Shown piece after piece: positions 7,041 to 63,095 of a DNA stretch of 64,000 nt. The position numbers and the translations under genes were made by a program. This stretch comes from Chthonomonadales bacterium (GTDB lineage Bacteria; Armatimonadota; Chthonomonadetes; Chthonomonadales; CAJBBX01). Position 1 is the stretch's first letter. Each line of letters opens with the position of its first letter. Under the pieces are notes generated by a model, which saw nothing but the letters and a program-made list of their open reading frames with translations, made no database searches and had not been told where the DNA came from. The stretch is from contig JABWBA010000006.1 of assembly GCA_013360745.1 (NCBI GenBank), positions 8,308 through 72,307 of the forward strand, read 5' to 3'.

Positions 7041-7062
7041 TCCCGCCGGTATCGGCGATGTC

Positions 7063-8022: not shown

Positions 8023-8054
8023 GGGGCGTTCACCTTTCGTGCAGTGGGCTTACT

Positions 8055-8081: not shown

Positions 8082-8127
8082 TCTATCTTCACCGCAGCGG
8101 CTCGGAACTCCTCCCATCGGCCGGATC

Positions 8128-10437: not shown

Positions 10438-10438
10438 C

Positions 10439-11782: not shown

Positions 11783-11828
11783 GGCAGATCCCTCCTGGGG
11801 CGTTGGCGGTGCACGGTGCGAGATGGTC

Positions 11829-13379: not shown

Positions 13380-13521
13380 GCGAGTCCCTCCGCGGCGGCG
13401 CACACTCCACAGCGGTTCTACGTCCGCCGCCGTTCCATGTTATTTTAGACGGCGTTGGCAGGCTGAAGTTCAGCCCGTGCTACCATATTCCACCGTTTCC
13501 TGCCATCAGGAGGACAGAGCA

Positions 13522-29957: not shown

Positions 29958-30029
29958 AGCCGACGCGCGGATTCGAACCGCGGACCTGCTCATTACGAGT
30001 GAGCTGCTCTACCACTGAGCCACGTCGGC
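29958..30029 (-). tRNA. tRNA-Thr (anticodon CGU)
   Basis: The reverse complement folds by hand as GCCGACG TG GCTC AGTGGTA GAGC A GCTCA CTCGTAA TGAGC AGGTC CGCGG TTCGAAT CCGCG CGTCGGC T. All four stems pair and the anticodon loop is CU-CGU-AA. No CCA is encoded. Confidence 0.92.
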
Positions 30030-30037
30030 AATGGCCA

Positions 30038-30110
30038 TGCCGCGGACCGGATTTGAACCAGTGACACGTGGATTTTCAGTCCACTGCTCTACCAACTGAG
30101 CTACCGCGGC
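30038..30110 (-). tRNA. tRNA-Phe (anticodon GAA)
   Basis: The reverse complement is GCCGCGG TA GCTC AGTTGGTA GAGC A GTGGA CTGAAAA TCCAC GTGTC ACTGG TTCAAAT CCGGT CCGCGGC A. It forms a cloverleaf with one G-U pair in the T stem. No CCA is encoded. Confidence 0.92.
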
Positions 30111-33449: not shown

Positions 33450-33579
33450 ATTGTGTGTATTGTCTATGATATCCTCCAGAGCCCCGAGCTGTCAACGGAG
33501 CGCGTGCCGGGTCGCTGGGCGCCCGGCGCAGCACAGCAGCCTCTCTGGGCCCGGTGGTCGGTTTCGCGGCCAGGGGCGT

Positions 33580-35937
33580 CTACGCCAATCCCCATCGGCG
33601 TCGGAGGATCCATTCGACGCTGAGCAGGCCCAGACAGAGCCCGAGCAGGGCCGGAGCGTTCCAGAGATCCCGCTCCTCGACGCTCCGGAATCTCAGCAGA
33701 ATCCGTTTCTGCCGCCACACCCAACCTGCGACATCCTCCGGCTCCATGAACGTCCCTCCTGAGACGCGGGCTATCTGCTTGAGGAGGTCGTCGTGCCGCT
33801 CCGGCTGCTGCAGTTCCACGGCTGCATCGCGGACGATGTACCGGGCGTACACTTCGGGGCCGCTGATCTGCTCACTCATCAGCGTTGCCCGGTGGCTACC
33901 GATCTCGCCTGCCTCCGCGGTACCGGTATACACTCCGGGTGATCCGGGCAGCGGCTTAAGCCGAACGGTCCGTGGTGACCGACCCCGGCCGTCTCCCTCG
34001 CGGCTCAAGCGGACGGCCACGTTGGCCCGATCCATCGGCCGATAGAACTCGTCGAGCACGCGCGCTGTCAACCCGACTCGGTCGCCCGGACGATACTCGC
34101 TCTCGTCGACGCTCAGCTGGGCGCGTTTGTTGCCGCCCGGATTATCCCTCGGCGTCATCGTACGGAGGATCTGCCCCCAGAACCGATAGAAGTATCGGTC
34201 GCCGACGCGCCAACGCCATCGCCAGGTGCTGTCGGTCATCGTCATCAGACAACGTCCTGCGCCGAACGGCTGGACCGCCAGCGCGGGCATGCCGGTGGCG
34301 GAGTTGACTGCGAGCGCCGTGGCTCCGGGCCGAAGGCCGCGACTGCTGCACATCCACAGCATCCCGGGGAGCTCCTGCCAGATGCGACGGTTCTCCTCCG
34401 GGTTCGGTGCGAGCGAGAGGATGGGATCCTGCGCCCCATAATCGGTTGGGGCGAGCCGGAACGGCTGGTCGGCGGTTACCGCCGATGGGACACCCGAAAA
34501 ACGGAAGGGTAGGACCGGCTCGAGCAGAGCGCCGGCGTACTCGTGGGGCATATGTCGTTCGCCGGCGATGACGATCAGGCTGCCGCCCCGATCCTCCACG
34601 AACCGTCGGAGATTGCGGAGCTCACTGTCGCCGAACATGACCCTTGGCACGTCGCCGAGGACCACGACATCGTAGGAGAAGAGGTCGTCGAGCTTCTCCG
34701 GGAACGACCGGACCGGCAGATTGCCCCGTGCGGTCGGCGCCCCTTCGTCATCAACGGTAAAGCAGGCGAAACCGATCTGATCGTCGCGGAGGATCGCGTT
34801 CTTCAGATAACGGTATTCCCAGCGCGGCTCTCCTTCGATGTACAGGACCCGAAGCTTCTTGTCCACCACCTGCTGGAGGAACGCCTTGCGGTTGTTGGTG
34901 TGCAGGGCTTCGCCGCCCAGCATGCTCACCCTCACTCTCAGCGCGCCATCCCCGGTCGTCTTGGGGGTATAGGTCAGCGGCACGTTCGCTCGGGCCTCTC
35001 CGGACCGCAACGCGACTTGCCTTGAGGCGAGGACGGTCCCGCTGCGATCGAGGCTAACCGTGACCGTCCGACCGCCGTAGCCCCGTTGCGTGAGTCCGGC
35101 CGTGATCCGGACCTCGGCTCCCTTGCGGACCACCCGATCCGCGAGGACGTCGACGATCGCCAGATCCTTCGTCGGCGTCGGGTCGCCGATGCCGACCGTG
35201 TGGATGGGAACGCCCAGGCTGCCCGCCTTTTTGGCCCACGAGACCGGATCGTCACCGCCGTTCGAGCCGCCATCGGTCAGAAGGAGGATGCCCGCAAGCG
35301 CCGAGCCCGAGGTATGATCGAGGATGTCCCGGATGGCGTCGCCGATCCGCGTTGCACCTGTTCGGGGGTTGCCCGCTGTGATCGTCGATCGGCGCTCCGT
35401 TCTGAACGCGCTCCGCTCGACCGGCGAGACCGTTTCGCCGAAGGTGAAGAGCTTGAGTGCGAACGTGCGGCCGAGGCGATCCACTGACGAGGCTGGTGGG
35501 TCTCCGTTTGACTTGCCCGTCTTCGCGAGCGTCAGCGTACGGATCGCGCGGCGCAGGCGGGGCGTCGTGCGGGGATCGGCGCCGAGCGTTCGTTCCGATC
35601 GTGCCGCGGCCTCCGCCCGGGTTCGCGGGTCCGTCAGCGCCATGCTGCCGGAGACATCGATGCCGACCGCCAGGCTTTTCGGCTGGCGCTGCACACGAGT
35701 GATCGTCGACACAGGGCGCAGCAGGGCCAACAGCACGCAGGCCACGGCAGCTAGTCGGAGCAGCGAGAGAAGGACAAGGCGACCTCGCCCGACTGCTGGT
35801 CCGTTCAGCCGGGCGATCCACAGCCAGAGCGCGGCGATCGCCAGGACCGCAGCGGCCAGGGAGGGCCTCCAGCCCGTCAGGATCACGCTCGAATCGCGCG
35901 AAGCGAGCGCCGCCAACCCGTGCAGGAGGTCGTTCAC
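33580..35937 (-). CDS. membrane-anchored vWA-domain protein with class-I glutamine-amidotransferase-like domain
   Basis: 785 aa. N-terminal TM pair, MIDAS motif GIDVSGSM, LLLTDGGSNGG. The later LRVLYIEGEPRWEYRYLKNAI...DVVVLGDVP...GGSLIVIAG segment is a GATase1-like fold. C-terminal TM is ALLGLCLGLLSV. The GTG start overlaps the upstream stop (GTGA at 35934-35937). Confidence 0.75.
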   Translation of the reverse strand: MNDLLHGLAALASRDSSVILTGWRPSLAAAVLAIAALWLWIARLNGPAVGRGRLVLLSLLRLAAVACVLLALLRPVSTITRVQRQPKSLAVGIDVSGSMALTDPRTRAEAAARSERTLGADPRTTPRLRRAIRTLTLAKTGKSNGDPPASSVDRLGRTFALKLFTFGETVSPVERSAFRTERRSTITAGNPRTGATRIGDAIRDILDHTSGSALAGILLLTDGGSNGGDDPVSWAKKAGSLGVPIHTVGIGDPTPTKDLAIVDVLADRVVRKGAEVRITAGLTQRGYGGRTVTVSLDRSGTVLASRQVALRSGEARANVPLTYTPKTTGDGALRVRVSMLGGEALHTNNRKAFLQQVVDKKLRVLYIEGEPRWEYRYLKNAILRDDQIGFACFTVDDEGAPTARGNLPVRSFPEKLDDLFSYDVVVLGDVPRVMFGDSELRNLRRFVEDRGGSLIVIAGERHMPHEYAGALLEPVLPFRFSGVPSAVTADQPFRLAPTDYGAQDPILSLAPNPEENRRIWQELPGMLWMCSSRGLRPGATALAVNSATGMPALAVQPFGAGRCLMTMTDSTWRWRWRVGDRYFYRFWGQILRTMTPRDNPGGNKRAQLSVDESEYRPGDRVGLTARVLDEFYRPMDRANVAVRLSREGDGRGRSPRTVRLKPLPGSPGVYTGTAEAGEIGSHRATLMSEQISGPEVYARYIVRDAAVELQQPERHDDLLKQIARVSGGTFMEPEDVAGWVWRQKRILLRFRSVEERDLWNAPALLGLCLGLLSVEWILRRRWGLA

Positions 35938-38069
35938 GTCCGTTTGGTCCAGCGGCCCGCGATGCCGATCTCCAGGGCCATGAGGATCAGGGCGAGGGTG
36001 AGCAGCGTCGCGGAGATCTCGCGACCCTCGCGCGCTTCGCGGACCGTCGCCGTCAGCTGTGCGTCGCCATGTACGTATAGGATCCTATCGGAACCGGCGA
36101 GGTTCCGGATCTCCGCAGGGGGCGCCTTTCTAAGGTCCGATTCGCGGGCCTTCGGATTGGCCGCATAGGCGTCACGGTGACCTTGAAACGGCCCTGTGCC
36201 CGCGATCCTGTAGATACCGGTGTCCTGAGCGATCGGGCAGGGGAGCAGCAGCGCCGCGTCGCGGAGGGTCGGCCGTACCGTCGCAGCGTCACCGGACGGT
36301 GCGGTGATCCGAAACGGACTCTGTGCGGCTCCAATGGGGAGGGAAACGACCGTGGCCGCGCCCGTGTCGATCATCCGCTGATCCGCGTGGAGGGACGCAA
36401 GGTAGGCGATGCACTGGTGGATCAGCGGGACGAATGCGGGTTTCAGCGGCAGATCCGAGCCCGGCGGCGCGGCAGTGAAGGCGAACACGATCAATCGGCC
36501 CCTGCCGCATACGGCTTCGAGGATCGCCGGAGCGCCGTCGCTGAATCGGGCGATGACCCTTGGCGCGCCTGCGGTATCGCGGACGGCCATACGAGCCCGG
36601 ATCGTGAATCGAGCGTCGCTGAGGCCCGCTCCGCCCGCGCCCATCGCGCGGAGGGCCGGATGATCGAACGAAGCGGGGTCGAGGCTGAAGGCGTTTCGGA
36701 GCGGCGCCGTCGATACGCCGGTGCATTCGAGGCCGGGAATCCGCAGGGCGCGGATGACCTGCGCAAGGCCGTTGCCCGATGTCGCCGGCATAACCATGAC
36801 GCCGCCGCCAGCGCGGACATAGGACGTGAGGGAGTTAAGATCGCGGTCGCTGTAGCGGGGCACGGCGGCGAGAACCAGCGCGTCGGGCTGGCCCGGCGCC
36901 AGCGGTTGAGATCCGATCTCGGGAAGGACTCGCACGATGATCCCGCCTCCGCCTTCGGCAACGCTGACCGGCGCAAGGGCGGTGGCCACATAGAGCACCG
37001 CGCCCGCGCCGCCGGCGCTCTCGGTGGAGCCGATCACGAGCGCCCGGATGGTCGCCTGCACGCGCACGGCGAACCACGCCGTATTGTCCGCCATCAGCCC
37101 ATCGGGCCGATCAAGGACGACCGCGCCCGTCCTCGTGCCCTGCGTATCGAACAGATGCGTGAAGGCAGCTTCGGCCGGCCGCTCCACCGGCGCCGCGATG
37201 TCCGCCGCGCCAACCGGCGCGCCGTCGACCTCGAGGCGAACTCGCGTTGCAGGCTGCGCCGCTCCGGTATAGTTTCCGATTCGGGAGATCAGCCGCACCG
37301 GTGCGGCGCCGGTGATCAGATCCCTGCTGAAGGTCGGCGGGGCGATAGCGACGTTGGGGCGGGTCGCGTCGCCGATATCGATCCAGACGATTCTGGCCGT
37401 CTTCGCGAGCGCCTGCCACACTCCCGATCGATCGGTCTTGCGGGTTTGCCTCAATCCGGAGGCCTGGGTGTCGGTAAGGAGGAACACCTCCTTGCGCCCG
37501 GCGGGGCTGGGCGCCGCGAGCGTCCGGCACAGCTCGGCCGCGGCCTCATAATCGGTGGCGTTGTACCCTGCCGTTACGCTCCGAATGCGGGCCCTCGCCG
37601 CCTGAAGATCGTGGGAGGGTTGTCGGATCAGCGCCCGAGGATGGTCGGAGAGAAGCGCCGCCGACACGGTATCGCCGGGCCGGAGCAGTCTGGTGATGAT
37701 CCGATCTGCGGCTGCCTGAGCTCGCTGAAAGTCGGTCGTACCGTCGGCCATCCATCGCATGCTCATCGAATCGTCGAGCGCGATGACCGCATGGATCGGC
37801 TCCCGGCTCGCGCCGGCCATGGCGTTGGGCGATCGGATCACGGGTCGGGCGAACGCAAGCGCGATGGCGCAGACGATCAGGGCGCGGAGCGCGGCGAGGA
37901 GGATCTGTTCGATGCGAAGGCGACGGCGAAGACGTTGCTGGGATTGGGCAAGGAATCGCCATGCCGCCCATCGGATCACGCGACGCCGACGTTGGCGGAT
38001 GAGGTGGAGCAGCAAGGGCACCGCCGCCGCGCCCAGGGCATAGAGCAGGCCCGGATTGAGGAACGTCAC
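35934..38069 (-). CDS. BatA-like protein: N-terminal double-TM aerotolerance-regulator domain + vWA domain
   Basis: Same frame as ORF 35934..38165. GTG 38069 overlaps the DUF58 stop (GTGA). N-terminus VTFLNPGLLYALGAAAVPLLLHLIRQRRRR matches the BatA_N/TIGR02226 pattern. MIDAS motif ALDDSMSM. Confidence 0.75.
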   Translation of the reverse strand: MTFLNPGLLYALGAAAVPLLLHLIRQRRRRVIRWAAWRFLAQSQQRLRRRLRIEQILLAALRALIVCAIALAFARPVIRSPNAMAGASREPIHAVIALDDSMSMRWMADGTTDFQRAQAAADRIITRLLRPGDTVSAALLSDHPRALIRQPSHDLQAARARIRSVTAGYNATDYEAAAELCRTLAAPSPAGRKEVFLLTDTQASGLRQTRKTDRSGVWQALAKTARIVWIDIGDATRPNVAIAPPTFSRDLITGAAPVRLISRIGNYTGAAQPATRVRLEVDGAPVGAADIAAPVERPAEAAFTHLFDTQGTRTGAVVLDRPDGLMADNTAWFAVRVQATIRALVIGSTESAGGAGAVLYVATALAPVSVAEGGGGIIVRVLPEIGSQPLAPGQPDALVLAAVPRYSDRDLNSLTSYVRAGGGVMVMPATSGNGLAQVIRALRIPGLECTGVSTAPLRNAFSLDPASFDHPALRAMGAGGAGLSDARFTIRARMAVRDTAGAPRVIARFSDGAPAILEAVCGRGRLIVFAFTAAPPGSDLPLKPAFVPLIHQCIAYLASLHADQRMIDTGAATVVSLPIGAAQSPFRITAPSGDAATVRPTLRDAALLLPCPIAQDTGIYRIAGTGPFQGHRDAYAANPKARESDLRKAPPAEIRNLAGSDRILYVHGDAQLTATVREAREGREISATLLTLALILMALEIGIAGRWTKRT

Positions 38070-38950
38070 GACTGTCGCATCCGTTCTGAGAGAAACTGCA
38101 CGAGAGCCTCGTCCACGGGGCGATCGGTGGTCATGAGGGCATAATCGGTTCGGATATCCCGGCAACCCCGTCGGATCGCCGTCAGATGCGCCTGAACCGT
38201 CCTCTGATACTCGATTCGGAGCGCCCTGGGGTCGGTTTCGAGCGTGCCTTCGTTCTCCATCCCCTCAAAGACGGACTCGCTCTCGAAGGGGAGAGTGAGC
38301 TCGGCCGGGTCCAGCACGTGGAGGACGATGACTTCGTGCTTCCGATGGCGGAAGTGCTGCAGGCCTTTGAGGATGGCTGCCGGTTCGTCCAGGAGGTCGC
38401 TCAGAATGATGACCAGCCCTTTGCGGCGGATTCGCTCGGCGAGGTCGCCGAAGGCGGCGCCGATGTCCGTCCGCTCGCCGGGCTCGGCCTCTTCCATCCG
38501 TCGGAGCAGTTCGCGCGCGTGGGCCGGCGTTCCGGCCGGGGGCAGATACCCGACGACGCCCGGCCCAAATGTCGCAAGCCCGACCGTGTCGCGCTGCCGG
38601 AGCAGCAGATATGTCAGGGCGGCGGCGATCGTCGCCGCGTACTGCGCCTTGGTCGTCGGGCCCGACCCATAGCCCATCGAACCGCTGACATCCAGCGCGA
38701 TGTGGGCTTTGAGGTTCGTCTCCTCCTCGTACTGCTTGACGTGGTAGCGGTCCGATCGGCCATAGACACGCCAGTCGATGTGCCGGATTTCATCCCCGGG
38801 GGTGTAGTTGCGATGCTGGGCGAACTCGACGCTGTAGCCGTGATGGGGGCTTCGATGCAGGCCTGATATCACGCCTTCGACCACGGCGCGAGCACGAAGT
38901 TCCAGCGAAGCTACGCGAGCGAGTGTCTTGGGGTCCGCGAGGGGAGCCAT
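38066..38950 (-). CDS. DUF58 domain protein
   Basis: 294 aa. Contains HRSPHHGYSVEFAQHRNYTPGDEIRHIDWRVYGRSDRYHVKQYEEETN, the DUF58 signature, then a degenerate vWA-like region (LDVSGSM). Confidence 0.85.
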   Translation of the reverse strand: MAPLADPKTLARVASLELRARAVVEGVISGLHRSPHHGYSVEFAQHRNYTPGDEIRHIDWRVYGRSDRYHVKQYEEETNLKAHIALDVSGSMGYGSGPTTKAQYAATIAAALTYLLLRQRDTVGLATFGPGVVGYLPPAGTPAHARELLRRMEEAEPGERTDIGAAFGDLAERIRRKGLVIILSDLLDEPAAILKGLQHFRHRKHEVIVLHVLDPAELTLPFESESVFEGMENEGTLETDPRALRIEYQRTVQAHLTAIRRGCRDIRTDYALMTTDRPVDEALVQFLSERMRQS

Positions 38951-38993
38951 CAGCGGGTGAGCCTGCAGGTCGCCGCCAACACCATCCGGGCGC

Positions 38994-40022
38994 TCAGCTG
39001 GCGGGGAGTCTCGGCGTGCGTTCGAGGAGCCGATCGACGATCGTATCGGGCGAGATCCCCTCGGCCTCGGCGTTGAAGTTGACGATCACCCGATGGCGGA
39101 GGACCGGATGGGCGATGGCAGCGACGTCGTCGGTCGTGGCGCAGGCGGCGCCATGCAGAGCAGCCCGCGCTTTGGCCCCGAGCACCAGATGCTGGGACGC
39201 CCTCGGGCCTGCGCCCCAGCTCACATACTCCCGCACGAAATCCGGAGCCTCGGGCTGGTCGGGCCGGGTGGCACGACTCAGATTGAGCGCGTACTGGATC
39301 ACATGGTCGCCCGCCGGCACCTTCCTTACGAGATCCTGAGCCCGGATGAGGTCTGACCCCGACATCTGGGAGGTGACCCTGGCGAAGCCCGCGCCGGTCG
39401 TGGCGGCGACGATCGCCTTCTCCTCCTCAGCCGATGGATAGCCGACACGGATCATGAACATGAACCGATCCAGCTGGGCCTCCGGCAGCGGATAGGTGCC
39501 CTCCTGTTCGATCGGATTCTGGGTCGCCAGCACGAAGAACGGATCGGGCAGCGGGTAGGGCGCCCCGCCCGAGGTGACCCGGCGTTCTTGCATGGCCTCG
39601 AGGAGGGCCGCCTGGGTTTTCGGCGGGGTTCGGTTGATCTCGTCGGCCAGGATGATGTGCGCGAACAGAGGGCCTTTCATGAAGACGAACACTCGTTCCC
39701 GCGTGACCTGATCTTCCTGAATGATCTCGGTGCCGGTGATGTCGGCGGGCATGAGATCCGGCGTGAACTGAATCCGTTTGAACGATACGTCGAGACAGTC
39801 GGCCAGCGAGCTGACCAGCAGGGTCTTGGCGAGGCCCGGGACCCCGACGAGGATGCCGTGCCCACGGGACAGGACGACCGTCAGGAGCTGCTCGACGACG
39901 GTTTCCTGCCCGATGATCACCCTGCCGAGCTCGCTCCGTATCCGACTGTATGCAGCGCTCAGCGCCGCGAGCGCTTCGGTGTCCGACCCCGTGGTCAATC
40001 GTGCGGCGTCATCTCTGGCCAT
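38994..40022 (-). CDS. MoxR-family AAA+ ATPase
   Basis: 342 aa. Walker A GVPGLAKT, Walker B ILADEINRTPPKTQAALLEAMQE, and sensor region ATQNPIEQEGTYPLPEAQLDRF. Confidence 0.92.
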   Translation of the reverse strand: MARDDAARLTTGSDTEALAALSAAYSRIRSELGRVIIGQETVVEQLLTVVLSRGHGILVGVPGLAKTLLVSSLADCLDVSFKRIQFTPDLMPADITGTEIIQEDQVTRERVFVFMKGPLFAHIILADEINRTPPKTQAALLEAMQERRVTSGGAPYPLPDPFFVLATQNPIEQEGTYPLPEAQLDRFMFMIRVGYPSAEEEKAIVAATTGAGFARVTSQMSGSDLIRAQDLVRKVPAGDHVIQYALNLSRATRPDQPEAPDFVREYVSWGAGPRASQHLVLGAKARAALHGAACATTDDVAAIAHPVLRHRVIVNFNAEAEGISPDTIVDRLLERTPRLPAS

Positions 40023-40055
40023 GCCTGAACGGTCCTTTCCTGAGGGGTATGGCGG

Positions 40056-41117
40056 TCATTTCTGATAGATCGGCAGGAGTCCCGCCGGCACCTGAAGGCA
40101 CAGGACCCCCATGGCGGTAGCGTACTCGTCACCCGGGTTATCGGTCCAGTGGCCGTCCTTTGCCTGACTGTCGACCAGCCGGGCCCGGAGGGCGGTAAAC
40201 CATGTTTTCCAATCTTTGCCGCCGACCTGATAGAAGGCCTGGGAGCAATAGTAGAGCGCGTAAAAGTAGTGCTCCCGGTAGGCCCATTCATACTTGTCCA
40301 GCGGGTGTTGAACGAGGTAGGTGATCCCGTTCCGACATTCCTTCGACCGGGACTCGCCGCACAGATACAGGCACAACACGGCCGCGCCCGTTCTGGCAGG
40401 ACCCGAGCTATGAGTCGTCGTCTGATAGCTGAAGCCGAGATCGGAGTTGTTCTGGCATTTCTTGATGTATCGGACCGCCTTCCGAATGGTCTCGGGCGGA
40501 ACCTTGAACCCGGCGTTGGCGGCCGCTCGCAGCGCAACGACCTGGACGACGGTCACCGAGATATCCGCATCGGTGGCCTGCGGCTGGTATCGCCAGCCCC
40601 CTTCCGGATTTTGCGTCTGTACGGTCAGGCGTATCGCCCGCTCGATTCGAGGGCGGAGGTCGTTGCGCTGGGTCATGCCATATAGCTCTGCCAGAGCCAG
40701 GACGGCGAAGCCATGCCCGTACATAGGCGGGCCGGAGCTGCCCCCTCGAAACGCCAGTCCGTTGCGCTGCACGGTCTCGGCCAGCCAGTCGACCGCGCGG
40801 GCCAGAATCCTGCCGTATTTGCCTCTTCCGGGCTGATGGCCCGCCGAAAGGAACGCGAGGGCAGCGAGGCCGGTTACCGCCGCATCGGCGTTGTACTGAG
40901 CGCTGTTCCAGTGGCCATCGGTCTGAGCCCGGGAAGCGAGGAATGTGAGCGCCTTCTCCACGGCGGCTTCAGAAGCGGGTGTGCCCAGGTATTCACGGGC
41001 TTCCACGTCGAACGGGTCTTTGCGCTGAGCGGCGCCTGACACGGCCATGGCGCCGGCCGCTGCGGAGCTGATGGCCCGGATCGCTTCACGGCGCGTCCAG
41101 CCGGTCCGTCGGCTCAT
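40056..41117 (-). CDS. Tat-signal prenyltransferase/squalene-cyclase-repeat (alpha/alpha-toroid) protein
   Basis: 353 aa. Tat signal SRRTGWTRREAIRAISSAAAGAMAV. QW-like repeats appear as TDGHWNS, NPEGGWRYQ and KDGHWTD. Its ATG overlaps the DUF4175 stop (ATGA at 41114-41117). Confidence 0.7.
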   Translation of the reverse strand: MSRRTGWTRREAIRAISSAAAGAMAVSGAAQRKDPFDVEAREYLGTPASEAAVEKALTFLASRAQTDGHWNSAQYNADAAVTGLAALAFLSAGHQPGRGKYGRILARAVDWLAETVQRNGLAFRGGSSGPPMYGHGFAVLALAELYGMTQRNDLRPRIERAIRLTVQTQNPEGGWRYQPQATDADISVTVVQVVALRAAANAGFKVPPETIRKAVRYIKKCQNNSDLGFSYQTTTHSSGPARTGAAVLCLYLCGESRSKECRNGITYLVQHPLDKYEWAYREHYFYALYYCSQAFYQVGGKDWKTWFTALRARLVDSQAKDGHWTDNPGDEYATAMGVLCLQVPAGLLPIYQK

Positions 41118-44100
41118 TTCCGCTCCGACAGAGCGCGATAGTAACGGCTCACGAGGTCCCGGTACTCGATCGGCACCTGGTCGAGCTTGCCCTGACCCAT
41201 CAGCTGTTGCTCACGCAGGCTGAGCGGGCCGAAGCGATACGCTCCGGCGGCGAGGTTGCGCACGGGCCCCGGCCGGGCCGTGACGATGGGAGCCGTTCCG
41301 CGAGTCGGTTCGCCATTGCGGCTGATCTGCCGGCGCGAGCCGTTGGGCGATGGTGTGGAACGGCGTGCCGCCGCGGCCAGCTGCTCCCGGTTCTTTGAGA
41401 GGATCGTATCGAGCCCCTGGACGATGGCGGATTGCTGCCGCTGGATCGGCGAGGCGGTGTTGCTGGCCCGGATCCCCTTTTCGATCGGGGTGATGTCCTC
41501 TGCGATCGCGTTCAGGCGGGCGCTCTCCGAGACGGCCTCGCGGGCGTCATTGGCGAGATTTCGGAGGCCGTTCTGGATCTCCCGTTCGCCATCCGCGATC
41601 CGATGGAGCTCTTGTCGTTCCGTATCGTTGAGCCCTCGGTCGGCCCGGCCCGAGCGCAACGTCTCCAACGTCGACGTTTCGGCATGGAACTGCGCCTGCA
41701 TCTCCCGTAGCGCCCGGAGCTCGCCGGCGCGATTGGCCAGCTGATGCTCGGGACTATCCCGTTCGCCTGCCTGTCGCTGCAGAGCGGCGGTTCGCTCGGC
41801 CTGACCCAGCGCTTCGGCGAGCCGCTCCAGTGTTCGAGCGCTGTTGGCCTGGGCCCGCTGGGTCGCCGCGCCGGTGTCCTGGCGCCACAGGGCGTGCGCC
41901 GCGTCGCTCATTCGCTGGAGGGCCTGATAACCCATCCACTTCATCACATTGGATGACAACTCTTCCGTCGCTCCGCGCAGGCGTTCGTTCAGCTTATCCT
42001 GCGCTGCGGCAAGCTGGTGGGCGCCCTTCTGAGCCTCGGCTTTGTCTTTACCCGCCGAGGCTTTGTGCTCGACGCCGGTTCTGCCCGCCAGCGCGCGCTG
42101 ATCCCTCGCCACTGCCTCGACGGCTGTGCGGGCTTCAAGGGCGGCGGCCTGCGTCTGCAGAAGCCGGGCGGCTTCGCGGGCCTCCATCGCGGCCTGCAGG
42201 AGATCGCGCGTGGCCTGACGAGCGGGGCCCCTGGCGTCGCTCGCGGACCCTTTGCCGAGCGATTCGGCGGCGCTGCGCATCGACCGGGACGCTCGCCGGG
42301 CGGAATCCTGAGCCCCGGGCGCCTGGGCGAGTTCAGGGATGATCCGGGCAAGATCGCCCTCGACGCGCCTCTGCTCGGCTGCCGCTTTGTCCGCTGTCGG
42401 TTTGTCCGTTGCCCCCTCGACCGTCCGCTGAACGGCGCGCTGCCGATTCGACAGCTCCTGCAAGGCGTCGGCCGCCCGTTCCACTGCGTCCGCCGCACGG
42501 TCCAATCCCTCGGGTGAGGACGCGGCGTTCGACGGATCCATCAGATCGGAGGCGAGGCGCTCCAGAGCGCTGGCGCTGCGACTCTGGAGGGTTCGAGCGT
42601 CGGTGAGGTTGCCCTCCGCGAGTTTCCTGCGCGCTTCTGCCTGCGCGGTGGGCGTGTTGGATCCGGCAAACGCGCGGGCGGCGTTCTTCACTGACGGATC
42701 GGCGGCGGCATCGGCCGCCGCGCTCAGGCGGTCGGCCAGAGCGAGCGTTCGCTCGTTCAGATCGGCCTGAGCTCGGGCGAGATCCTGTGCGGCGCCCCGC
42801 GGCGCGGCCTGCGACCGGTCGGCGAGCCGCCGCTGTTCCGCCGCCAGGGTATCGGCTTCGCGGGCGAGCTCGTTGGGAGAGGCTGGCGCGGAGCTGCGAT
42901 TCGCGATACGCTCCAGGCTCCGACGAACGTCGGTGGCAATCTCGGACGCCCGGCCGGTTGCACCGTTTCTCGCCGCAGCGGCGGCCTCGGGCATCTTGCG
43001 GTTTGCGATATTCCGCAGTTCATCGGCAAGCGCGTCGCTGGCGGCGCGATCCTGAGGAGAGGCGAGCTGATTGACCCGCAGCATGTCGGCGGTTCGGGTT
43101 ACGCTCTGACGTACCGCCTCCGCCTCACGCGCCAGCTCCATCTGGCGATCGGCTTGCGCAGCCGCGGTTTGGCGATCTGCCGACCGTAGCGCCATCTCGA
43201 TCTTCCGCTCATCGCCTGCGAGGTTACGCAGGCGCTCGACCTGCTCCCTCCGGGCCTGCGCCGCCCTTTCGAGGACTTCGCTGACGCTGATGATGCGCAC
43301 CCGTCGTTCCGTAGACCGCCCGGTATGCGGGCCGCTAATCGTGTCTTCGTCTTCGGCCTCGGCGTAATAGGTCACTGTGTCTCCCGGTACGACCTTCAGA
43401 GCCGAGAGGTTCAATGTGGCGCGGGCTGCCGCCTGGCCCGGTTGCTGGCCGCGGATGAGAGACAGCGGGGTGCGGCCGGATGATCCCGCCCGGCTATGGG
43501 CCAGCCGCATCGCGCCGATACCGTAATCATCGGTCGCATGCGCCTCAATATCGATGACCCCCGTGGGTGCGCGCTCGAGATCACCGGCAGGCTCTACGAT
43601 GTGGACGGTCGGGGTTCGATCACGGATCACGCGGACGGAGTAGATCGGCTCCGGCTCGGCGGCGAAGCCGTACCGATCTTCAAGGCTGAGGCGGAGGGCG
43701 CCGTCATCGACCAGCGACACCGTGCCCTCGGCGCGCTCCTCCGTGACCGCGAGCGGTGTCGGCGGATGGCCGACGCGCTGCAGTATGGCGCGGCGCAGCG
43801 CTTTACTGGCGGTGAACTCGATGTGCGCCCGGGAGCCGGCTGGGGCGGCCACGTTCGCGCTGCTCGCGTCGACGGTCGTGGGCGCCTTGCGCATGTAGTC
43901 GGGATAGGTCAGAGTGATCCGTACAGCGCGGACCACCGGGCGATCTTCAACGCGAATCCGGTATTGATTGGAGCGGCCGTCCCCGCCGGCAGCGTAATAG
44001 AGGGTGTCTTCGAAGACCCGGGTCAGGCGGGTTGTGTACGCAGGGCGACCGTTGCTCTGTGTCGTCCGTTTCAGCCGGAGATCCCTCCACGCTCCCGTTC

Positions 44101-44782
44101 CTGAACGCGTATGGAGTCGTGCGCTTGTCGGCACAACCCCTGACGGGAGCGCCGTGACGAGGACATCCGCGCCTCGAGGTATCACACGGTCGCCAGGAGC
44201 AACCCTCCAGCGGGTCGCCGCCCAGATCGGGATATCGGCGTAGGGATGGATGATACGGCTCATCCATGTCACGAGGCCCAGGGGCGTCAGAGCGGCCTCA
44301 AGGAGCAGCGGGGCGCATCCGAGCATACAGTAGAGCCCAGCGCGGCGCCGCCGGCCGCCGGGTACCGCGCTTGCGAGGTCGAGGCCCTCCGTTCTGGCCC
44401 GGGCCTCGCGCAGCACCGCGTCGACGAGGTCGGAATCGTCCTCAGCGCGGGCCTTGCCGATCTCGACTGCCGTCAACAGCCGTTCGTTCAGCGCGGGAAA
44501 CCGGGCTTCAGCCCATCCCGCCAGGACCGTGTCCGTTCGGTGACGCAGCCGGGGGAGGAGCGCAATCACGCCAACGCCTCCCAGCGCCGCTGCGGCCAGG
44601 AGCAGCTGGGAGGCAAGGCGAAGCGCAGACGTGCCGACGATGGCCCTGTCCAGGCGATACAACGCCCAGATCAACAGCGCGAGTGACCCGAGCGTATAGA
44701 GGGTCGCGGCAGTCAGGACCACGCTGCGATCTCGTCGCCGTGCCCGGTCCAGTCCTGGATATAGAAGATCAGAGCCCGTCAT
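41114..44782 (-). CDS. DUF4175-type large membrane protein with very long Ala/Arg/Gln/Glu-rich helical region
   Basis: 1222 aa. N-terminal TM segments (VVLTAATLYTLGSLALLIWAL, LLLAAAALGGVGVIALL). An Ig-like middle region is followed by several hundred residues of low-complexity helix. C-terminal LDQVPIEYRDLVSRYYRALSERK is a DUF4175-like ending (from memory). Confidence 0.65.
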   Translation of the reverse strand: MTGSDLLYPGLDRARRRDRSVVLTAATLYTLGSLALLIWALYRLDRAIVGTSALRLASQLLLAAAALGGVGVIALLPRLRHRTDTVLAGWAEARFPALNERLLTAVEIGKARAEDDSDLVDAVLREARARTEGLDLASAVPGGRRRRAGLYCMLGCAPLLLEAALTPLGLVTWMSRIIHPYADIPIWAATRWRVAPGDRVIPRGADVLVTALPSGVVPTSARLHTRSGTGAWRDLRLKRTTQSNGRPAYTTRLTRVFEDTLYYAAGGDGRSNQYRIRVEDRPVVRAVRITLTYPDYMRKAPTTVDASSANVAAPAGSRAHIEFTASKALRRAILQRVGHPPTPLAVTEERAEGTVSLVDDGALRLSLEDRYGFAAEPEPIYSVRVIRDRTPTVHIVEPAGDLERAPTGVIDIEAHATDDYGIGAMRLAHSRAGSSGRTPLSLIRGQQPGQAAARATLNLSALKVVPGDTVTYYAEAEDEDTISGPHTGRSTERRVRIISVSEVLERAAQARREQVERLRNLAGDERKIEMALRSADRQTAAAQADRQMELAREAEAVRQSVTRTADMLRVNQLASPQDRAASDALADELRNIANRKMPEAAAAARNGATGRASEIATDVRRSLERIANRSSAPASPNELAREADTLAAEQRRLADRSQAAPRGAAQDLARAQADLNERTLALADRLSAAADAAADPSVKNAARAFAGSNTPTAQAEARRKLAEGNLTDARTLQSRSASALERLASDLMDPSNAASSPEGLDRAADAVERAADALQELSNRQRAVQRTVEGATDKPTADKAAAEQRRVEGDLARIIPELAQAPGAQDSARRASRSMRSAAESLGKGSASDARGPARQATRDLLQAAMEAREAARLLQTQAAALEARTAVEAVARDQRALAGRTGVEHKASAGKDKAEAQKGAHQLAAAQDKLNERLRGATEELSSNVMKWMGYQALQRMSDAAHALWRQDTGAATQRAQANSARTLERLAEALGQAERTAALQRQAGERDSPEHQLANRAGELRALREMQAQFHAETSTLETLRSGRADRGLNDTERQELHRIADGEREIQNGLRNLANDAREAVSESARLNAIAEDITPIEKGIRASNTASPIQRQQSAIVQGLDTILSKNREQLAAAARRSTPSPNGSRRQISRNGEPTRGTAPIVTARPGPVRNLAAGAYRFGPLSLREQQLMGQGKLDQVPIEYRDLVSRYYRALSERK

Positions 44783-44976
44783 ATCGATCGATGTCGGTAG
44801 GTACGGTGTAGGCGTCTATACTCCCGTTGAGACGCTTGTTCCTGCTGAAAGTGACAGAGTCGTTCGGAGTGGAAGGCGAAACGCACGATCATAGATGCCC
44901 GTAGACCGTATGTGCCCGGCGGGAAGCACAGGGGGTCGATGGACGGTCGAATGCCGACTGATCTGGAAAGGATGTC

Positions 44977-46662
44977 ATGAAGCGCAAGATCCTGTTCGGT
45001 TGTATCATGCCGATCCTCTTGCTGATAGGCCTGGGCTATTGGGGCTATCGGCGCCTGGTCTCGAAGCCCGTATTGGAGCCGCGGCTGTCGACGGTTGATC
45101 GGGGAAACGTCGAGATCAAGGTGGTCGAGACGGGGACCATCGAGCCGTTGAAGAAGGTCGAGATCAAGTCGAAGGTGGCGGGCCGCCTTGCACGACTCTA
45201 CGTCGATGAAGGTGATCGTGTTACCGCCGGGCAGGTCCTGGCGGAAATCGACCCGACGGAGATCAACAGCCAGGTCGATCAGATTCGAGCGCAGGTGGAC
45301 GGAGCCCGGGCGCGCCTGGCCCAGACCGTCCGGGCCGTAGCCTATCAGAAGGAGCAGACCGACGCTGACGTCCGGCAGGCCGAGGAAGGAGTGCGGTCCG
45401 CCGAAGCGCGCCTGAGATCGGCTGAGCGGGACTACGCGACCCAGCCCGAGATCACGAGGACGGAGATCGCCCAGGCAGAGGCCTCTCTGGCATCGGCTCA
45501 GAAGAGTCTGGTCCTGCTTCAGGAATCGACACACCCACAGGCCCGGGTGCAGGCCCAGACCGGCCTGGACGAGGCTGTGGCCCTCGCCGCCCAGGCAGCG
45601 CGCAATCTGGCGCGCCAACGGAGCCTGCTGCAAAAGGGCTTCGTGTCAGAACAAACAGTCGATGCGGCTGCTTCGGAGGAAACGGCCGCCAGAGCCCGGT
45701 TGTCGCAGGCTAAAAAGCGGATGGAGCTGCTGGATGAACAGCAGCGAACCGAGGCCGCCGAAGCGAAAGCGCGTGTTGCTCAGGCGGAGGCCGCCCTGGC
45801 CCGTGCCCAGACGGGGCGGAGTCTCGTCGCCGCGCGTCAGGATGACGTCAAGAGCGCGCGAGCGGCGCTTCTTCAGGCGCGTGCGCGGCTGGATGCTGCT
45901 CGGTCCGGGCGAAGACAGGACAAGATGCGGGAGGACGAGGTCGCCCAGGCTCGATCTGCTGTGGAGCAGGTCCAGAATCAGCTCGACGAGATTCTGGTTC
46001 GACAACGGGATACGCGGCTGGTCGCAACGATGTCCGGGGTGGTCAGCAAGCGGTACGTCGAACAGGGCGAGTTGATCACCAGCGGCGTCAGCACCTTCTC
46101 CTCGGGGACACCGGTGCTCCAGGTGGCGGATCTATCCCGAATGCTGATCAAAGCCAGCGTCAACGAGGTCGACGTGCAGAAGGTTCGGCAGGGTCTGCCC
46201 GTGGAAATCCGGGTCGACGGCGTTCGTGGCGTCCGATACCGGGGCATAGTCAACAAGGTGTCGCCTTCGGCAATCGGCGCCGGTGATCCGAGTGGGCAGG
46301 GACAACGGGGCGAAGGTGCGGTGATCCGCTTTGCGGTGGAAATCGGCATGACGAATCCCGATCATCGGCTTCGCCCGGGGATGAGCGCGAGGAACTCCAT
46401 CATCGTGAGCCGCCGGAGGAATGTGCTGCGCCTGCCTGCCGATGCGGTGGAGGGTGACGGCGCCAACGGCGTGGTGCAGCTGGCTCACGTGACGAAGAAG
46501 GACGACAAGACAAGCGTCCAGTATACGCGAACCCGGATCACCGCGGGGCTGCGGGGTGACAGCTTCATCGAGATTGTGCGCGGACTCGAGGTCGGCGATA
46601 AGACGAAGCCCGGCGTATTCAAGGGTCCCAAACGAAAGGCGATCGAGCTGCGGTTCGAATAG
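44977..46662 (+). CDS. HlyD/MacA-type periplasmic adaptor of a tripartite efflux system
   Basis: 561 aa. N-terminal anchor ILFGCIMPILLLIGLGYWGY, barrel-sandwich motif GTIEPLKKVEIKSKVAGRL...EGDRVTAGQVLAEID, an unusually long Ala/Gln/Arg coiled-coil hairpin, then beta-barrel and MP domains. Confidence 0.85.
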   Translation: MKRKILFGCIMPILLLIGLGYWGYRRLVSKPVLEPRLSTVDRGNVEIKVVETGTIEPLKKVEIKSKVAGRLARLYVDEGDRVTAGQVLAEIDPTEINSQVDQIRAQVDGARARLAQTVRAVAYQKEQTDADVRQAEEGVRSAEARLRSAERDYATQPEITRTEIAQAEASLASAQKSLVLLQESTHPQARVQAQTGLDEAVALAAQAARNLARQRSLLQKGFVSEQTVDAAASEETAARARLSQAKKRMELLDEQQRTEAAEAKARVAQAEAALARAQTGRSLVAARQDDVKSARAALLQARARLDAARSGRRQDKMREDEVAQARSAVEQVQNQLDEILVRQRDTRLVATMSGVVSKRYVEQGELITSGVSTFSSGTPVLQVADLSRMLIKASVNEVDVQKVRQGLPVEIRVDGVRGVRYRGIVNKVSPSAIGAGDPSGQGQRGEGAVIRFAVEIGMTNPDHRLRPGMSARNSIIVSRRRNVLRLPADAVEGDGANGVVQLAHVTKKDDKTSVQYTRTRITAGLRGDSFIEIVRGLEVGDKTKPGVFKGPKRKAIELRFE

Positions 46663-46709
46663 GCAGGGTTCGGGCGGCGCTATGGCCGCCGTCCCAGGAG
46701 GTTCAGGGG

Positions 46710-47339
46710 ATGAACAACGAGATCCATCGTGTGCTGTCTCTGCTGGAGGAAGGCAAGATCAGCGCTCAAGAGGCAACCGAGCTAATCGCTGCTCTCGGAT
46801 CGGCGAAACAGACCATGGGGAGCGCGGGGAGCGACGAAGGCCCGGGTGCTGGGCGTAGCGGGTCCGCAGAGGGCAGTAGAGAAGGCGGCCCGGACATCAT
46901 TCAGATCATCGGGAGGGCCTTGCGCCGTATGGCCCGTCGTCAGACGCGTGCCACCTGGTGGCGGTACTACGCGTTCACCGATCAGCATTCGAGATCTCGC
47001 CTCGAGCGCGCGGCGACCATGACTCCCGCCGACCGGGTGCGGCGCGTCGCGACGGCGGTTGGCCTTGCCGATGCCGCCGAATGGACCTCGGAGGCCCTTC
47101 TGAGCGGGTTTGAGCTCGATGAGATGGCCCGGGGGCTGCTCCGGTACGCCATGGCGGACGAGTTTGGATGCCCGCTTACGGATGCCGAGGCGGGACGATG
47201 GATCACCGTGGGCGACATCGAGGCCTGGGCCGCTGATCACTCAACCCCGGCTTCCGAGTCCGAACAGCCTCCGGATCCTGCCGCAACCGGGGAGTCCGCA
47301 GCTGAAGCCGATGCCGTCGACGACGACAGCGGAGCCTGA
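46710..47339 (+). CDS. hypothetical protein: SHOCT-like N-terminal motif, basic middle, carrier-protein-like segment, acidic tail
   Basis: 209 aa. AGGAGG SD lies 8 nt upstream. Contains VLSLLEEGKISAQEATELIAAL. Later, RVRRVATAVGLADAAEWTSEALLSGFELDEMARGLL...EFGCPLTDAEAGRWITVGDIEAW aligns by eye with ACP helices, but GFELD replaces DSLD. Confidence 0.6.
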   Translation: MNNEIHRVLSLLEEGKISAQEATELIAALGSAKQTMGSAGSDEGPGAGRSGSAEGSREGGPDIIQIIGRALRRMARRQTRATWWRYYAFTDQHSRSRLERAATMTPADRVRRVATAVGLADAAEWTSEALLSGFELDEMARGLLRYAMADEFGCPLTDAEAGRWITVGDIEAWAADHSTPASESEQPPDPAATGESAAEADAVDDDSGA

Positions 47340-47348
47340 ACCGGCTGC

Positions 47349-48587
47349 ATGACCATTCTCCATTGTCTCGCAACCGCTCTCGGCAACCTCCGCGCGAACA
47401 AGATGCGGAGCGCGCTGACGATGCTCGGCGTGATCATCGGTGTCAGCGCCGTGATCATCATGGTGAGCATCGTCGAGGGAGCGCGCGCGAAGATCGTGGA
47501 GGAGTTTGAGCGGCTCGGATCGAGTCTGATCATCATCGCCTACGATCCGCACAAGGCGGAGGAGGCTCGTTCGACGCGGCGCTTGCCTGGTCTCACGATG
47601 GACGATGTCCAGCGGATTCAGGTGGAGTGCGATCTCGTCTCGGGGCTCTCAGCGGAGCTGCCCGTCCCGGATTCGATGACCATCCGATATCTCGATGCGG
47701 AGACGCCGGCGTCGCTTGTGGGCGTACAGCCCGATTATGCTCTTCTCAGGAATGTTGACGTTGCGGAGGGGCGCTTCCTATCGGAGGAGGATGTCACGAG
47801 CTGGGCCAAGGTATGTGTGATCGGATCCGAAATCAAGGGAAAGCTGTTTGGCCGGCGCCCTGCGATCGGAAACGAGATCGATATTCAGGGCGTCACCGCG
47901 ACGGTGGTGGGAGTCCTGGCTCGGAAGGGGCGGAGCGGCGAAGGCAACACCGACAAGACCGTGCTCGCGCCGATCACGACGATCCAGAAGCGTTTCATCG
48001 GCAGGGAGATCGTCGGCATGATCTGGGCCAAGCCGGTCTCCAGTGAGCGGGTTGGTCAGGCTATGGATCAGATATGGGAGTGTTTGATGCGCGCCCACGA
48101 TAACATACCGGGCTTCGAGGTGGACAGTCTGGAGAACATCCAGAACGCCATCGGCCGGATCCTGAGCATCTTTGGCCTGGTCCTTGGCGGAATCGCCGGG
48201 CTCGCGCTTCTCGTGGGCGGCATCGGCATTATGAACATCATGCTCGTCTCGGTGACCGAACGGACGAAGGAGATCGGCCTTCGGAAAGCCGTGGGAGCGC
48301 GCCGACGGGATATCCTGGCCCAGTTCCTCATCGAATCCGCGACGGTGTCGGGTACGGGCGGGCTCATCGGCATCGGGCTCGGCGCCGGCGTCGCCCATGC
48401 CGCCTCCTTTATCTCAAAACAGGTGATGAAGGGTGGGATCGGAGGGCGCGGGATCCCGGCTTACCTCCCGATGTGGTCGATCCTCGGTGCGTTCCTGTTC
48501 TCCGCGAGCGTCGGGGTGTTCTTCGGCCTCTACCCGGCCATTCGCGCCGCCCGGCTCGACCCGATCGAGGCGCTTCGGCACGAGTAG
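47349..48587 (+). CDS. MacB/LolC-type ABC transporter permease (FtsX domain + periplasmic MacB_PCD), no fused ATPase
   Basis: 412 aa. Contains LRANKMRSALTMLGVIIGVSAVIIMVS, a large periplasmic loop, and the C-terminal FtsX motif VSVTERTKEIGLRKAVGARRRDIL. No Walker motifs. Confidence 0.88.
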   Translation: MTILHCLATALGNLRANKMRSALTMLGVIIGVSAVIIMVSIVEGARAKIVEEFERLGSSLIIIAYDPHKAEEARSTRRLPGLTMDDVQRIQVECDLVSGLSAELPVPDSMTIRYLDAETPASLVGVQPDYALLRNVDVAEGRFLSEEDVTSWAKVCVIGSEIKGKLFGRRPAIGNEIDIQGVTATVVGVLARKGRSGEGNTDKTVLAPITTIQKRFIGREIVGMIWAKPVSSERVGQAMDQIWECLMRAHDNIPGFEVDSLENIQNAIGRILSIFGLVLGGIAGLALLVGGIGIMNIMLVSVTERTKEIGLRKAVGARRRDILAQFLIESATVSGTGGLIGIGLGAGVAHAASFISKQVMKGGIGGRGIPAYLPMWSILGAFLFSASVGVFFGLYPAIRAARLDPIEALRHE

Positions 48588-59963: not shown

Positions 59964-59967
<4 letters not shown>

Positions 59968-62900: not shown

Positions 62901-63095
62901 CGAGGGCTGCACGTCCGCAGGCGTCGTCGGCGCCGTTTGCGGCCTGGTCGATACCGGCTGGCCGCTCTTCAGCAGGGCGTCCCAGAGCGTTTCATCCGAC
63001 CGTGCAGCCGCGTTGGCCGAGACGACCGCGAGCGCCAACACCATCAACCGGCTCAGGGCCGATGCTGTCGCCAGGCGATGCGCGAGTCTCGCCAT
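59964..63095 (-). CDS. very large outer-membrane beta-barrel-type protein (family not recognised)
   Basis: 1043 aa. Signal peptide RLMVLALAVVSANAAA. There are long stretches with alternating polar/hydrophobic residues rich in Y, G, S, T and N. The C-terminal DADLGLRF ends in Phe, the usual BAM-substrate signature. Confidence 0.7.

Follow-up and report, generated by a model that had tools for sequence, protein, structure and literature searches.

What might a bacterium gain from encoding a MoxR ATPase, a DUF58 protein, two membrane-bound vWA proteins, a DUF4175-type membrane protein and an exported alpha/alpha toroid side by side on one strand? The question is raised by a locus of a Chthonomonadales bacterium lying in a 64,000-nt stretch of contig JABWBA010000006.1 (hereafter the window, meaning the whole stretch analysed), in which six co-directional minus-strand genes, g1-g6, cover positions 33580-44782. 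Operons of the MoxR-DUF58-BatA/vWA type are spread over many bacterial phyla, and in several species they influence stress tolerance, envelope integrity or virulence; we know of no biochemical function assigned to the Bat (Bacteroides aerotolerance) operon class, and of no substrate or mechanism. We propose that the block is probably the Armatimonadota/Planctomycetota version of the MoxR-DUF58-BatA-vWA system, building or remodelling an inner-membrane-anchored periplasmic scaffold for envelope integrity. As such, the six-gene set is a lineage-specific variant of the known and widespread Bat/RL3499-type MoxR class rather than a new category, and the finding is a comparative-genomics lead, not a demonstrated new mechanism. 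A literature search, carried out with the question of whether the six-gene architecture is already characterised, found no paper describing it.

The layout of the locus speaks for a single transcriptional unit. In order of reading the genes are g1 (41114-44782, 1222 aa, ATG start), g2 (40056-41117, 353 aa), g3 (38994-40022, 342 aa), g4 (38066-38950, 294 aa), g5 (35934-38069, 711 aa counted from a GTG) and g6 (33580-35937, 785 aa, GTG start). Three junctions read from the sequence are 4-nt stop-start overlaps (g1/g2, ATGA at 41114-41117; g4/g5, GTGA at 38066-38069; g5/g6, GTGA at 35934-35937) and the remaining two are gaps of 33 and 43 nt, so that the gene count, overlaps and gaps given in an earlier first-pass annotation of this DNA all agree with the open reading frame (ORF) listing and with our reading of the junctions. 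The g5 frame is open as far as a TTG at 38165, and we place its start at the GTG at 38069 because in that version the alignments to the BatA_N and TIGR02226 profiles begin at residue 1. Inside the six-gene block, a consensus scan of the minus strand gave neither a promoter-like nor a terminator-like site; the sole promoter-like match in 12 kb, a sigma-70-like site at 33466-33495 on the same strand (TTGACA, 18-nt spacer, TATCAT; 11/12), lies ~85 nt downstream of the g6 stop codon. Judged by the overlaps, the short gaps and the missing internal promoter and terminator sites, g1-g6 form one real operon. Its promoter region is presumed to lie in the 194-nt divergent intergenic region between g1 and an HlyD-family gene (44783-44976), within which the scan found no sigma-70-like consensus. 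A candidate seventh gene that overlaps the g1 start by 4 nt (44779-45633, minus strand, 284 aa, TTG start) is probably spurious because it runs antisense to that HlyD-family gene (44977-46662, plus strand), which has good Pfam support, and the operon therefore begins at 44782, after the 194-nt divergent region. Rfam and tRNA scans gave no match inside the locus. Antisense through g5, opposite a gene with good Pfam support, runs a 655-aa Arg/Gly/Ala-rich ORF (36177-38144, plus strand), most likely an artefact of few stop codons at 68% G+C and not a gene.

Profile searches with each of the six proteins confirmed the MoxR (AAA_3), DUF58, BatA_N plus vWA, second vWA and prenyltransferase/squalene-cyclase repeat families. 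The identities first read for g3 and g4 proved right: g3 (38994-40022, minus strand) is a MoxR AAA+ ATPase of the MRP subfamily (AAA_3, E 2.4e-61 over the full profile, 1-131; AAA_lid_2, 2.4e-17), with a Walker A motif GVPGLAKT at 39822-39845, a Walker B motif ILADEINR at 39630-39653 and PDB entry 2R44 as its nearest solved structure (E 6e-76), and g4 (38066-38950, minus strand) is a soluble, vWA-like DUF58 protein (DUF58, 1.8e-55; VWA_2, 5.9e-10) with a metal-ion-dependent adhesion site (MIDAS) motif, DVSGS, at 38678-38692. We detected no export signal in g3, and neither a transmembrane segment nor a signal peptide in g4, which is therefore taken as cytoplasmic. A MoxR ATPase likewise stands beside a soluble MIDAS vWA-like partner in RavA-ViaA, CbbQ-CbbO, NorQ-NorD and CoxD-CoxE, and pairing of the RavA-ViaA type suggests ATP-driven remodelling of a specific target. 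In their interpretation of MoxR-vWA operons, Zhang and Aravind assigned substrate recruitment to the vWA protein and substrate remodelling to the AAA+ protein (PMC3495828). From this family knowledge, g3 and g4 would act as a cytoplasmic, ATP-driven remodelling pair; unlike in the RavA-ViaA-type pairs, the candidate targets here are membrane and periplasmic proteins of the same operon and not a cytoplasmic enzyme.

The two large vWA proteins appear to face the other side of the membrane. The product of g5 (35934-38069, minus strand) is a BatA-type protein with an N-terminal double-transmembrane hairpin, a vWA domain with MIDAS motif DDSMS (37761-37775), a ~450-residue region (faint DUF4350 match only) and a C-terminal transmembrane segment (BatA_N, 3.4e-16; VWA_2, 6.4e-13; TIGR02226, 2.1e-21), in keeping with the BatA-like assignment made at first reading. 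The second vWA protein, g6 (33580-35937, minus strand), has two N-terminal transmembrane segments, a MIDAS motif DVSGS (35644-35658), DUF7408/GATase1-like and Ig-like (MG2) regions and a C-terminal transmembrane segment. Its profile matches are weak (VWA, 7e-5; DUF7408, 3e-4; GATase1_like, 0.018), and despite its double transmembrane segment and VWA domain it does not match BatA_N; among 17 orthologues, VWA is matched by 15, DUF7408 by 14, GATase1_like by 5 and MG2 by 4, so that its description as a vWA protein with a GATase1-like region and a C-terminal anchor stands, with a weak GATase1_like component. The loop between the first two transmembrane segments of g5 carries 12 Arg/Lys in 34 residues; by the positive-inside rule this Arg-rich loop is cytoplasmic, which would make the g5 vWA domain periplasmic, and g6 is predicted to follow the same plan. 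For both proteins, the prediction draws on the positive-inside counts and on BB0173, a BatA-family protein in which experiments place the vWA domain in the periplasm (PMC5700661). It speaks against a pairing of these two vWA domains with MoxR in the cytoplasm, and the trans-envelope assembly suggested at first reading is not established: the predicted locations are all cytoplasmic, inner-membrane or periplasmic, with no outer-membrane component identified among the six products. We infer instead that the locus encodes a cytoplasmic ATPase/vWA-like pair together with a large periplasmic, inner-membrane-tethered protein set.

The nearest named relatives of this core are the Bat operons of Bacteroides and their counterparts in spirochaetes, Riemerella and Francisella, which likewise encode an MRP-type MoxR, a DUF58 protein and a BatA_N double-transmembrane vWA protein together. 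The Bat-like core first recognised here is thus correct by the AAA_3, DUF58, BatA_N and VWA_2 matches. The differences are considerable: MoxR comes first in Bat operons and third in this locus, the vWA proteins, at 711 and 785 aa, have roughly double the length and carry extra GATase1-like and Ig-like regions and a C-terminal transmembrane segment, and a DUF4175-type protein and an exported toroid are added. We therefore weighed the possibility that the locus is a classical Bat system for aerotolerance or oxidative stress, keeping the periplasm reduced or protecting against reactive oxygen species as proposed for Bacteroides fragilis and Riemerella anatipestifer. The shared MoxR, DUF58 and BatA_N/vWA proteins are what such a system would contain, and mutation of moxR or batA in R. 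anatipestifer alters survival under oxidative and heat stress and changes virulence (PMC11834572). Against this, none of the six proteins has an equivalent of BatC (TPR), BatD or BatE (SH3/TPR), as no TPR, BatD or SH3 match was obtained, for g1, g5 and g6 even at E<10; none matches a Pfam redox-enzyme family; and deletion of all bat genes in Leptospira biflexa left growth, morphology and oxidative tolerance unchanged (PMC3557215), so that the published accounts of a Bat role in oxidative stress themselves disagree (PMC3557215 versus PMC11834572). We accordingly regard a classical Bat role as unlikely, and a dedicated oxidative-stress function seems less likely than a role in an envelope scaffold.

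The first of the two added proteins, g1, has no Pfam or NCBIfam match of its own, PF13779 (DUF4175) lying below reach even at E<10. Its homologues P0002-P0017 do carry PF13779, however, and 16 of 20 g1 orthologues match DUF4175 (best E 8e-16). With DUF4175 proteins g1 shares N-terminal transmembrane segments, a conserved beta-rich core, a long low-complexity helical region and a C-terminal YRxxVxxYY motif, and our alignments A1 and A4 show invariant motifs common to g1 and the DUF4175 members. Assigned via homologues and orthologues alone, g1 is best described as a divergent DUF4175-type inner-membrane protein. The one functional mention of DUF4175 that we found is a partial domain match in the Acinetobacter baumannii division protein AdvA (PMC7481262). 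The membrane region of g1 (44273-44725, minus strand) comprises transmembrane-like segments at residues 20-38, 58-76 and about 150-170, identified from hydropathy and charge counts, and between the last two lies an Arg-rich conserved loop (residues 77-147) that holds the motif RFPALNERLLTAVEIG at 44456-44503 and in which A88, E92, P96, R101 and L102 are invariant or near-invariant in the orthologue alignment. From positive-inside counts, the N-terminus and the loop are predicted to be cytoplasmic and everything beyond residue ~170 periplasmic. The periplasmic part would begin with three tandem Ig-like beta-sandwich domains (residues ~190-497; 43292-44215, minus strand; AlphaFold2 mean predicted local distance difference test (pLDDT) score 91), which contain a conserved ATDDYG motif (43520-43537) and whose model is matched in Foldseek by multi-Ig chains alone (receptor ectodomains, Fabs and C3 MG domains). 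A region of ~640 residues rich in Ala, Arg, Leu, Glu and Gln follows (residues ~500-1140; 41363-43285, minus strand); its composition, a modest heptad (3.5-residue) hydrophobic periodicity (z ~2.7-2.9 versus shuffles) and an AlphaFold2 fragment that enters a long helix at residue 500 indicate that it is probably helical, a coiled coil being a candidate only. Of the first-pass description of a 1222-aa DUF4175-type transmembrane and coiled-coil protein, the DUF4175 relationship (by way of the orthologues, as g1 itself gives no direct Pfam match) and the membrane segments thus hold, while the coiled coil is unproven and the Ig-like domains had been overlooked.

The g1 protein ends in a conserved C-terminal module of ~75 aa (41117-41347, minus strand), defined by a profile and alignments and terminating in VPIEYRDLVSRYYRALSERK. 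In Armatimonadota, as in a few Planctomycetota (L062, L080), a profile built from the last 90 residues of g1 finds its match at the C-terminus of the long DUF4175 ORF. The majority of Planctomycetota instead encode the module as a separate ORF of ~250-390 codons, located between the DUF4175 gene and the toroid gene and directly upstream of the latter; the split protein of one such locus (L038) has a signal peptide of its own and contains a low-complexity stretch. The existence of this split, secreted form suggests that the module is an autonomous periplasmic unit. We considered whether it could be a toroid-docking element, as it is always encoded just upstream of the toroid, and did not adopt this idea because its C-terminal motif is nearly invariant also in DUF4175 proteins encoded away from any toroid (alignment A1; L003, L084); the adjacency may merely reflect conserved gene order.

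The second added protein, g2 (40056-41117, minus strand), is by Pfam, AlphaFold2 and Foldseek an exported, single-domain (alpha/alpha)6 toroid built of prenyltransferase/squalene-cyclase repeats. Its model is a single barrel of ~320 aa with at least 12 helices (pLDDT 87), and its best Foldseek matches, at a TM-score of ~0.6 and ~15% identity, are AprG, squalene-hopene cyclase, type II terpene cyclases and FTase-beta, with a probability of 1.0 to squalene-hopene cyclase, AprG, MstE and FTase-beta. Residues ~1-30 (41028-41117, minus strand) are a predicted signal peptide starting MSRRTGWTRREAIRAISSAAAGAMAVSGAA, followed by Q, with a weak, non-canonical twin-arginine motif, TRREAI (T-R-R-E-A-I-R as against the canonical S/T-R-R-x-F-L-K). 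Essentially all toroid orthologues surveyed carry signal peptides; the RR motif is found in 4 of 32 close g2 homologues, the others having typical Sec signals, and xRRxF[LIV] in 9 of 36 Planctomycetota orthologues. Judged from these signals, toroid export is conserved and the twin-arginine translocation (Tat) route is not, so that of the first-pass notion of a Tat-signal toroid the exported alpha/alpha fold remains, whereas the Tat motif is weak.

These signals bear on a second alternative, in which MoxR and DUF58 would be a cytoplasmic maturation chaperone of the toroid, acting in its folding or in cofactor insertion before Tat export, with the membrane vWA proteins as accessories. MoxR-vWA pairs are indeed generally seen as maturation chaperones of specific complexes (PMC3893208; see also PMC3495828), and the twin-arginine-like signal of the window's toroid, together with the canonical xRRxFL motifs of the 9 Planctomycetota orthologues, would fit such a role. 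The Armatimonadota orthologues are mostly of the Sec type, however, and Sec substrates cross the membrane unfolded; a MoxR/DUF58/BatA/vWA/DUF4175 set without a toroid exists in an uncultured bacterium (L085, described below); and no cofactor-binding motif was identified in the toroid. We consider a toroid chaperone quite unlikely.

A third alternative takes the fold of g2 at face value, making it an active periplasmic terpenoid cyclase or prenyltransferase that works on an envelope lipid (a hopanoid or polyprenol), with the other products positioning or regulating it. In its favor, SQHop_cyclase_C (PF13243) matches well above the Pfam threshold (E 2.9e-14, 53.2 bits versus a cut-off of 26.1), squalene-hopene and other class II terpene cyclases and the prenyltransferase beta subunit have the same (alpha/alpha)6 barrel fold and are its nearest structural neighbours, and the ~80 invariant columns found among 32 sequences would fit an enzyme. 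Those neighbours are only ~15% identical, though, and, unlike the two-domain (beta-gamma) cyclases, g2 is an exported single barrel; its sequence contains neither a DxDD motif nor a 'DD' dipeptide anywhere, and it scores far below the NCBIfam cyclase cut-offs (TIGR01507, 40.5 bits versus 431; TIGR01787, 46 versus 323). By its predicted structure, g2 is a member of the prenyltransferase/squalene-oxidase repeat fold superfamily; it is not shown to be a cyclase, and an active cyclase or prenyltransferase appears very unlikely. In the scaffold that we favor, this non-cyclase barrel would most likely be the subunit through which the periplasmic assembly binds a ligand or partner.

To determine how far the toroid and DUF4175 genes travel with the MoxR core, we scanned a toroid alignment against one genome per GTDB species, which matched at least 600 stretches, and analysed the best 80 loci, mapping their ORFs by comparison with the six proteins of our locus and with a DUF4175 profile. 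Of the 65 loci whose flank is long enough, 59 have a DUF4175 gene directly upstream of the toroid on the same strand. The window order, DUF4175-toroid-MoxR-DUF58-BatA-vWA, is also that of the Armatimonadota loci: where at least 9 kb of flank is available, MoxR, DUF58 and BatA follow downstream of the toroid in 7 of 11. In Planctomycetota, Kuenenia included, the order is MoxR-DUF58-BatA-vWA-DUF4175-toroid; 31 of 35 loci have BatA, vWA and DUF4175 before the toroid, and in L080 all six genes lie within 11 kb. The toroid and DUF4175 genes are thus co-conserved with the MoxR core, a point on which the first-pass proposal of one assembly hinged; its 'two extra leading genes' describe the Armatimonadota order only, as Planctomycetota carry both genes behind the core and DUF4175 also occurs in the toroid-less L085 cluster. 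Because the gene set recurs in dozens of genomes, the six-gene arrangement is not due to chance. That the g1-g2 pair is a mere neighbor, functionally independent of the MoxR core, is hardly credible: a few toroid loci have no MoxR or BatA gene within 10 kb and some DUF4175 relatives no MoxR gene within their 10-kb flanks, against which stand linkage held in two gene orders and two phyla (59/65 and 31/35 loci) and the stop-start overlaps that join g1/g2, g4/g5 and g5/g6.

The degree of conservation also sets the toroid apart. Measured as median bit score per residue by phylum (Armatimonadota and Planctomycetota, respectively), the toroid (1.15 and 0.81) nearly equals MoxR (1.45 and 1.19) and DUF58 (1.31 and 1.01) and lies far above the three membrane proteins g1 (0.30 and 0.05), g5 (0.56 and 0.25) and g6 (0.85 and 0.35), a level that is as would be expected of a core subunit.

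Which of these genes make up the wider system is suggested by the L085 cluster (uncultured bacterium, GCA_964591285.1). Over 4124-15649 it encodes, in order, DUF4159, MoxR, DUF58, BatA-vWA, DUF4175 and vWA plus GATase1_like proteins, that is, the same five protein types as our locus; its DUF4175 protein (P0008) is a homologue of g1 (E 5e-18), and its vWA plus GATase1_like protein is 767 aa long. It differs from our locus in that MoxR comes first, DUF4175 lies between BatA and the vWA/GATase1 protein, DUF4159 genes flank the set and a prenyltransferase-repeat protein is missing; a 344-aa protein with a weak Peptidase_C13 match follows, and the second DUF4159 gene lies downstream on the opposite strand. 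The presence of DUF4175 inside this toroid-less cluster places it in the wider core and leaves the toroid alone as a lineage-specific addition, seen, among the loci examined, in Armatimonadota and Planctomycetota alone. As far as these gene neighbourhoods indicate, the widespread core is MoxR + DUF58 + BatA-vWA + vWA/GATase1-like, often with DUF4175.

Several loci carry further genes within or beside the set. Toroid homologues reach 81% identity, and those are annotated as Chthonomonadales or Armatimonadota; the closest genome locus (L004) belongs to a Chthonomonadales metagenome-assembled genome (77% identity), in which the flanking HlyD, SHOCT and MacB genes are also present. A soil-metagenome relative with 31% g1 identity (L001) keeps the window order although three small genes are inserted: a pair of small unannotated ORFs separates MoxR from DUF58 (9457-11099), and a DUF559 endonuclease-like gene separates BatA from the last vWA gene (14462-14851). 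The cluster thus tolerates insertions. In a Chthonomonadaceae locus (L017), an insert of ~3 kb between toroid and MoxR (11375-14417) encodes a 160-aa protein, a HEAT-repeat-like transmembrane protein and a second, different prenyltransferase-repeat toroid paralogue with a canonical RRRFL Tat motif; gaps of similar size occur at L013, L016 and L018-L020. In the Planctomycetota loci L040, L041, L070 and L072, a tandem second toroid paralogue lies directly downstream of the first (~9.8-12.2 kb). Directly after the toroid, L038 encodes a 406-aa signal-peptide protein (11033-12253, plus strand) whose C-terminus, judged by eye, resembles an NPCBM carbohydrate-binding module.

The operon-like organisation, the family and fold assignments and the co-conservation across phyla are observations; the mechanism that we infer from them would run as follows. 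The proteins g1, g5 and g6 would be inner-membrane proteins with their bulk in the periplasm, g5 and g6 contributing MIDAS-bearing vWA, GATase1-like and Ig-like domains tethered by transmembrane segments at both ends, and g1 its three Ig-like domains, ~640 probably helical residues and conserved C-terminal module. Together with the exported toroid they would form a scaffold that MoxR-DUF58 assembles or remodels with ATP, and the ATPase pair could reach g1, g5 and g6 only at short Arg-rich cytoplasmic loops, among them the conserved 70-residue loop of g1. In physiological terms the likely task would be to maintain the envelope. We favor a scaffold because of the operon structure, the family assignments, the two gene orders in two phyla, the conservation of the toroid and the periplasmic placement of most of the products. 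It is also in line with the surroundings of the locus: the flanks hold housekeeping genes, the efflux-type neighbours are common to the closest relative alone, and there are no defence-model matches, PADLOC returning none for any of the six proteins, so that an anti-phage defence function was set aside. The four alternatives, weighed above, are all less well supported.

A role in the envelope, in particular, is suggested by the operon RL3499-RL3502 of Rhizobium leguminosarum (Vanderlinde et al. 2011, J Bacteriol 193:2684), likewise a broadly conserved MoxR + DUF58 + membrane-protein operon, with which the comparison rests on citations. Mutants of this operon are cited in PMC5700661 as defective in envelope and morphology, and on complex medium RL3499/RL3500 are growth-impairing (PMC5118466). 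These envelope and morphology defects are, as cited, the most relevant phenotype for the class; the operon comprises four genes, and in the citing passages no toroid is reported.

Several points weigh against a scaffold of this kind. The membrane separates the cytoplasmic ATPase pair from the periplasmic domains that it would act upon. The DUF4175 relatives in L003, L084, L086 and L087 are those without a MoxR gene within 10-kb flanks, and some toroid loci are without parts of the gene set within the same distance. Finally, the L. biflexa bat deletion without phenotype (PMC3557215) indicates that a general envelope role of the class is not universal.

A more specific model goes further. In this hitherto unrecognised periplasmic machine of Planctomycetota and Armatimonadota, the cytoplasmic MoxR/DUF58 motor would switch the periplasmic MIDAS vWA domains through the cytoplasmic loops, in an integrin-like, 'inside-out' manner, and these domains, with the Ig-like/helical DUF4175 protein and the toroid as a highly conserved ligand binder, would tether or remodel a component of the envelope, for instance a lipid, a glycan or peptidoglycan. 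We put it forward as a possible, rather speculative extension of the scaffold proposal. If it were true, the toroid would be the first component of the Bat/MoxR-DUF58 class whose ligand can be sought directly, and hence a route to the function of the class. Independently of that model, the variant persists in two phyla whose envelopes are unusual, and it contributes two conserved partners whose structural identity is clear, an exported alpha/alpha-barrel and an Ig-like plus long-helical protein. Testable handles on Bat/MoxR-DUF58 function lie in the ligand of the toroid, in the subunit interfaces and in the C-terminal module of DUF4175, which is naturally fused in some loci and split off in others.

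Beyond the operon, a divergent efflux-type cluster (44977-48587, plus strand) encodes the HlyD-family membrane-fusion protein, a small SHOCT-like protein and a MacB_PCD/FtsX permease. We rejected these HlyD/SHOCT/MacB genes as conserved partners, as among the fetched loci they adjoin the six-gene locus in its closest relative, L004, alone. On the other side of the locus, tandem tRNA-Thr(CGT) and tRNA-Phe(GAA) genes lie at 29958-30110 (minus strand); the listed GTG start (30068) of a DHDPS-family ORF overlaps tRNA-Phe, and its true start is therefore probably further downstream. The window also holds a 1043-aa ORF (59964-63095, minus strand) with no Pfam match at E<0.001, near the Mfd/TRCF gene at 53671-57267.

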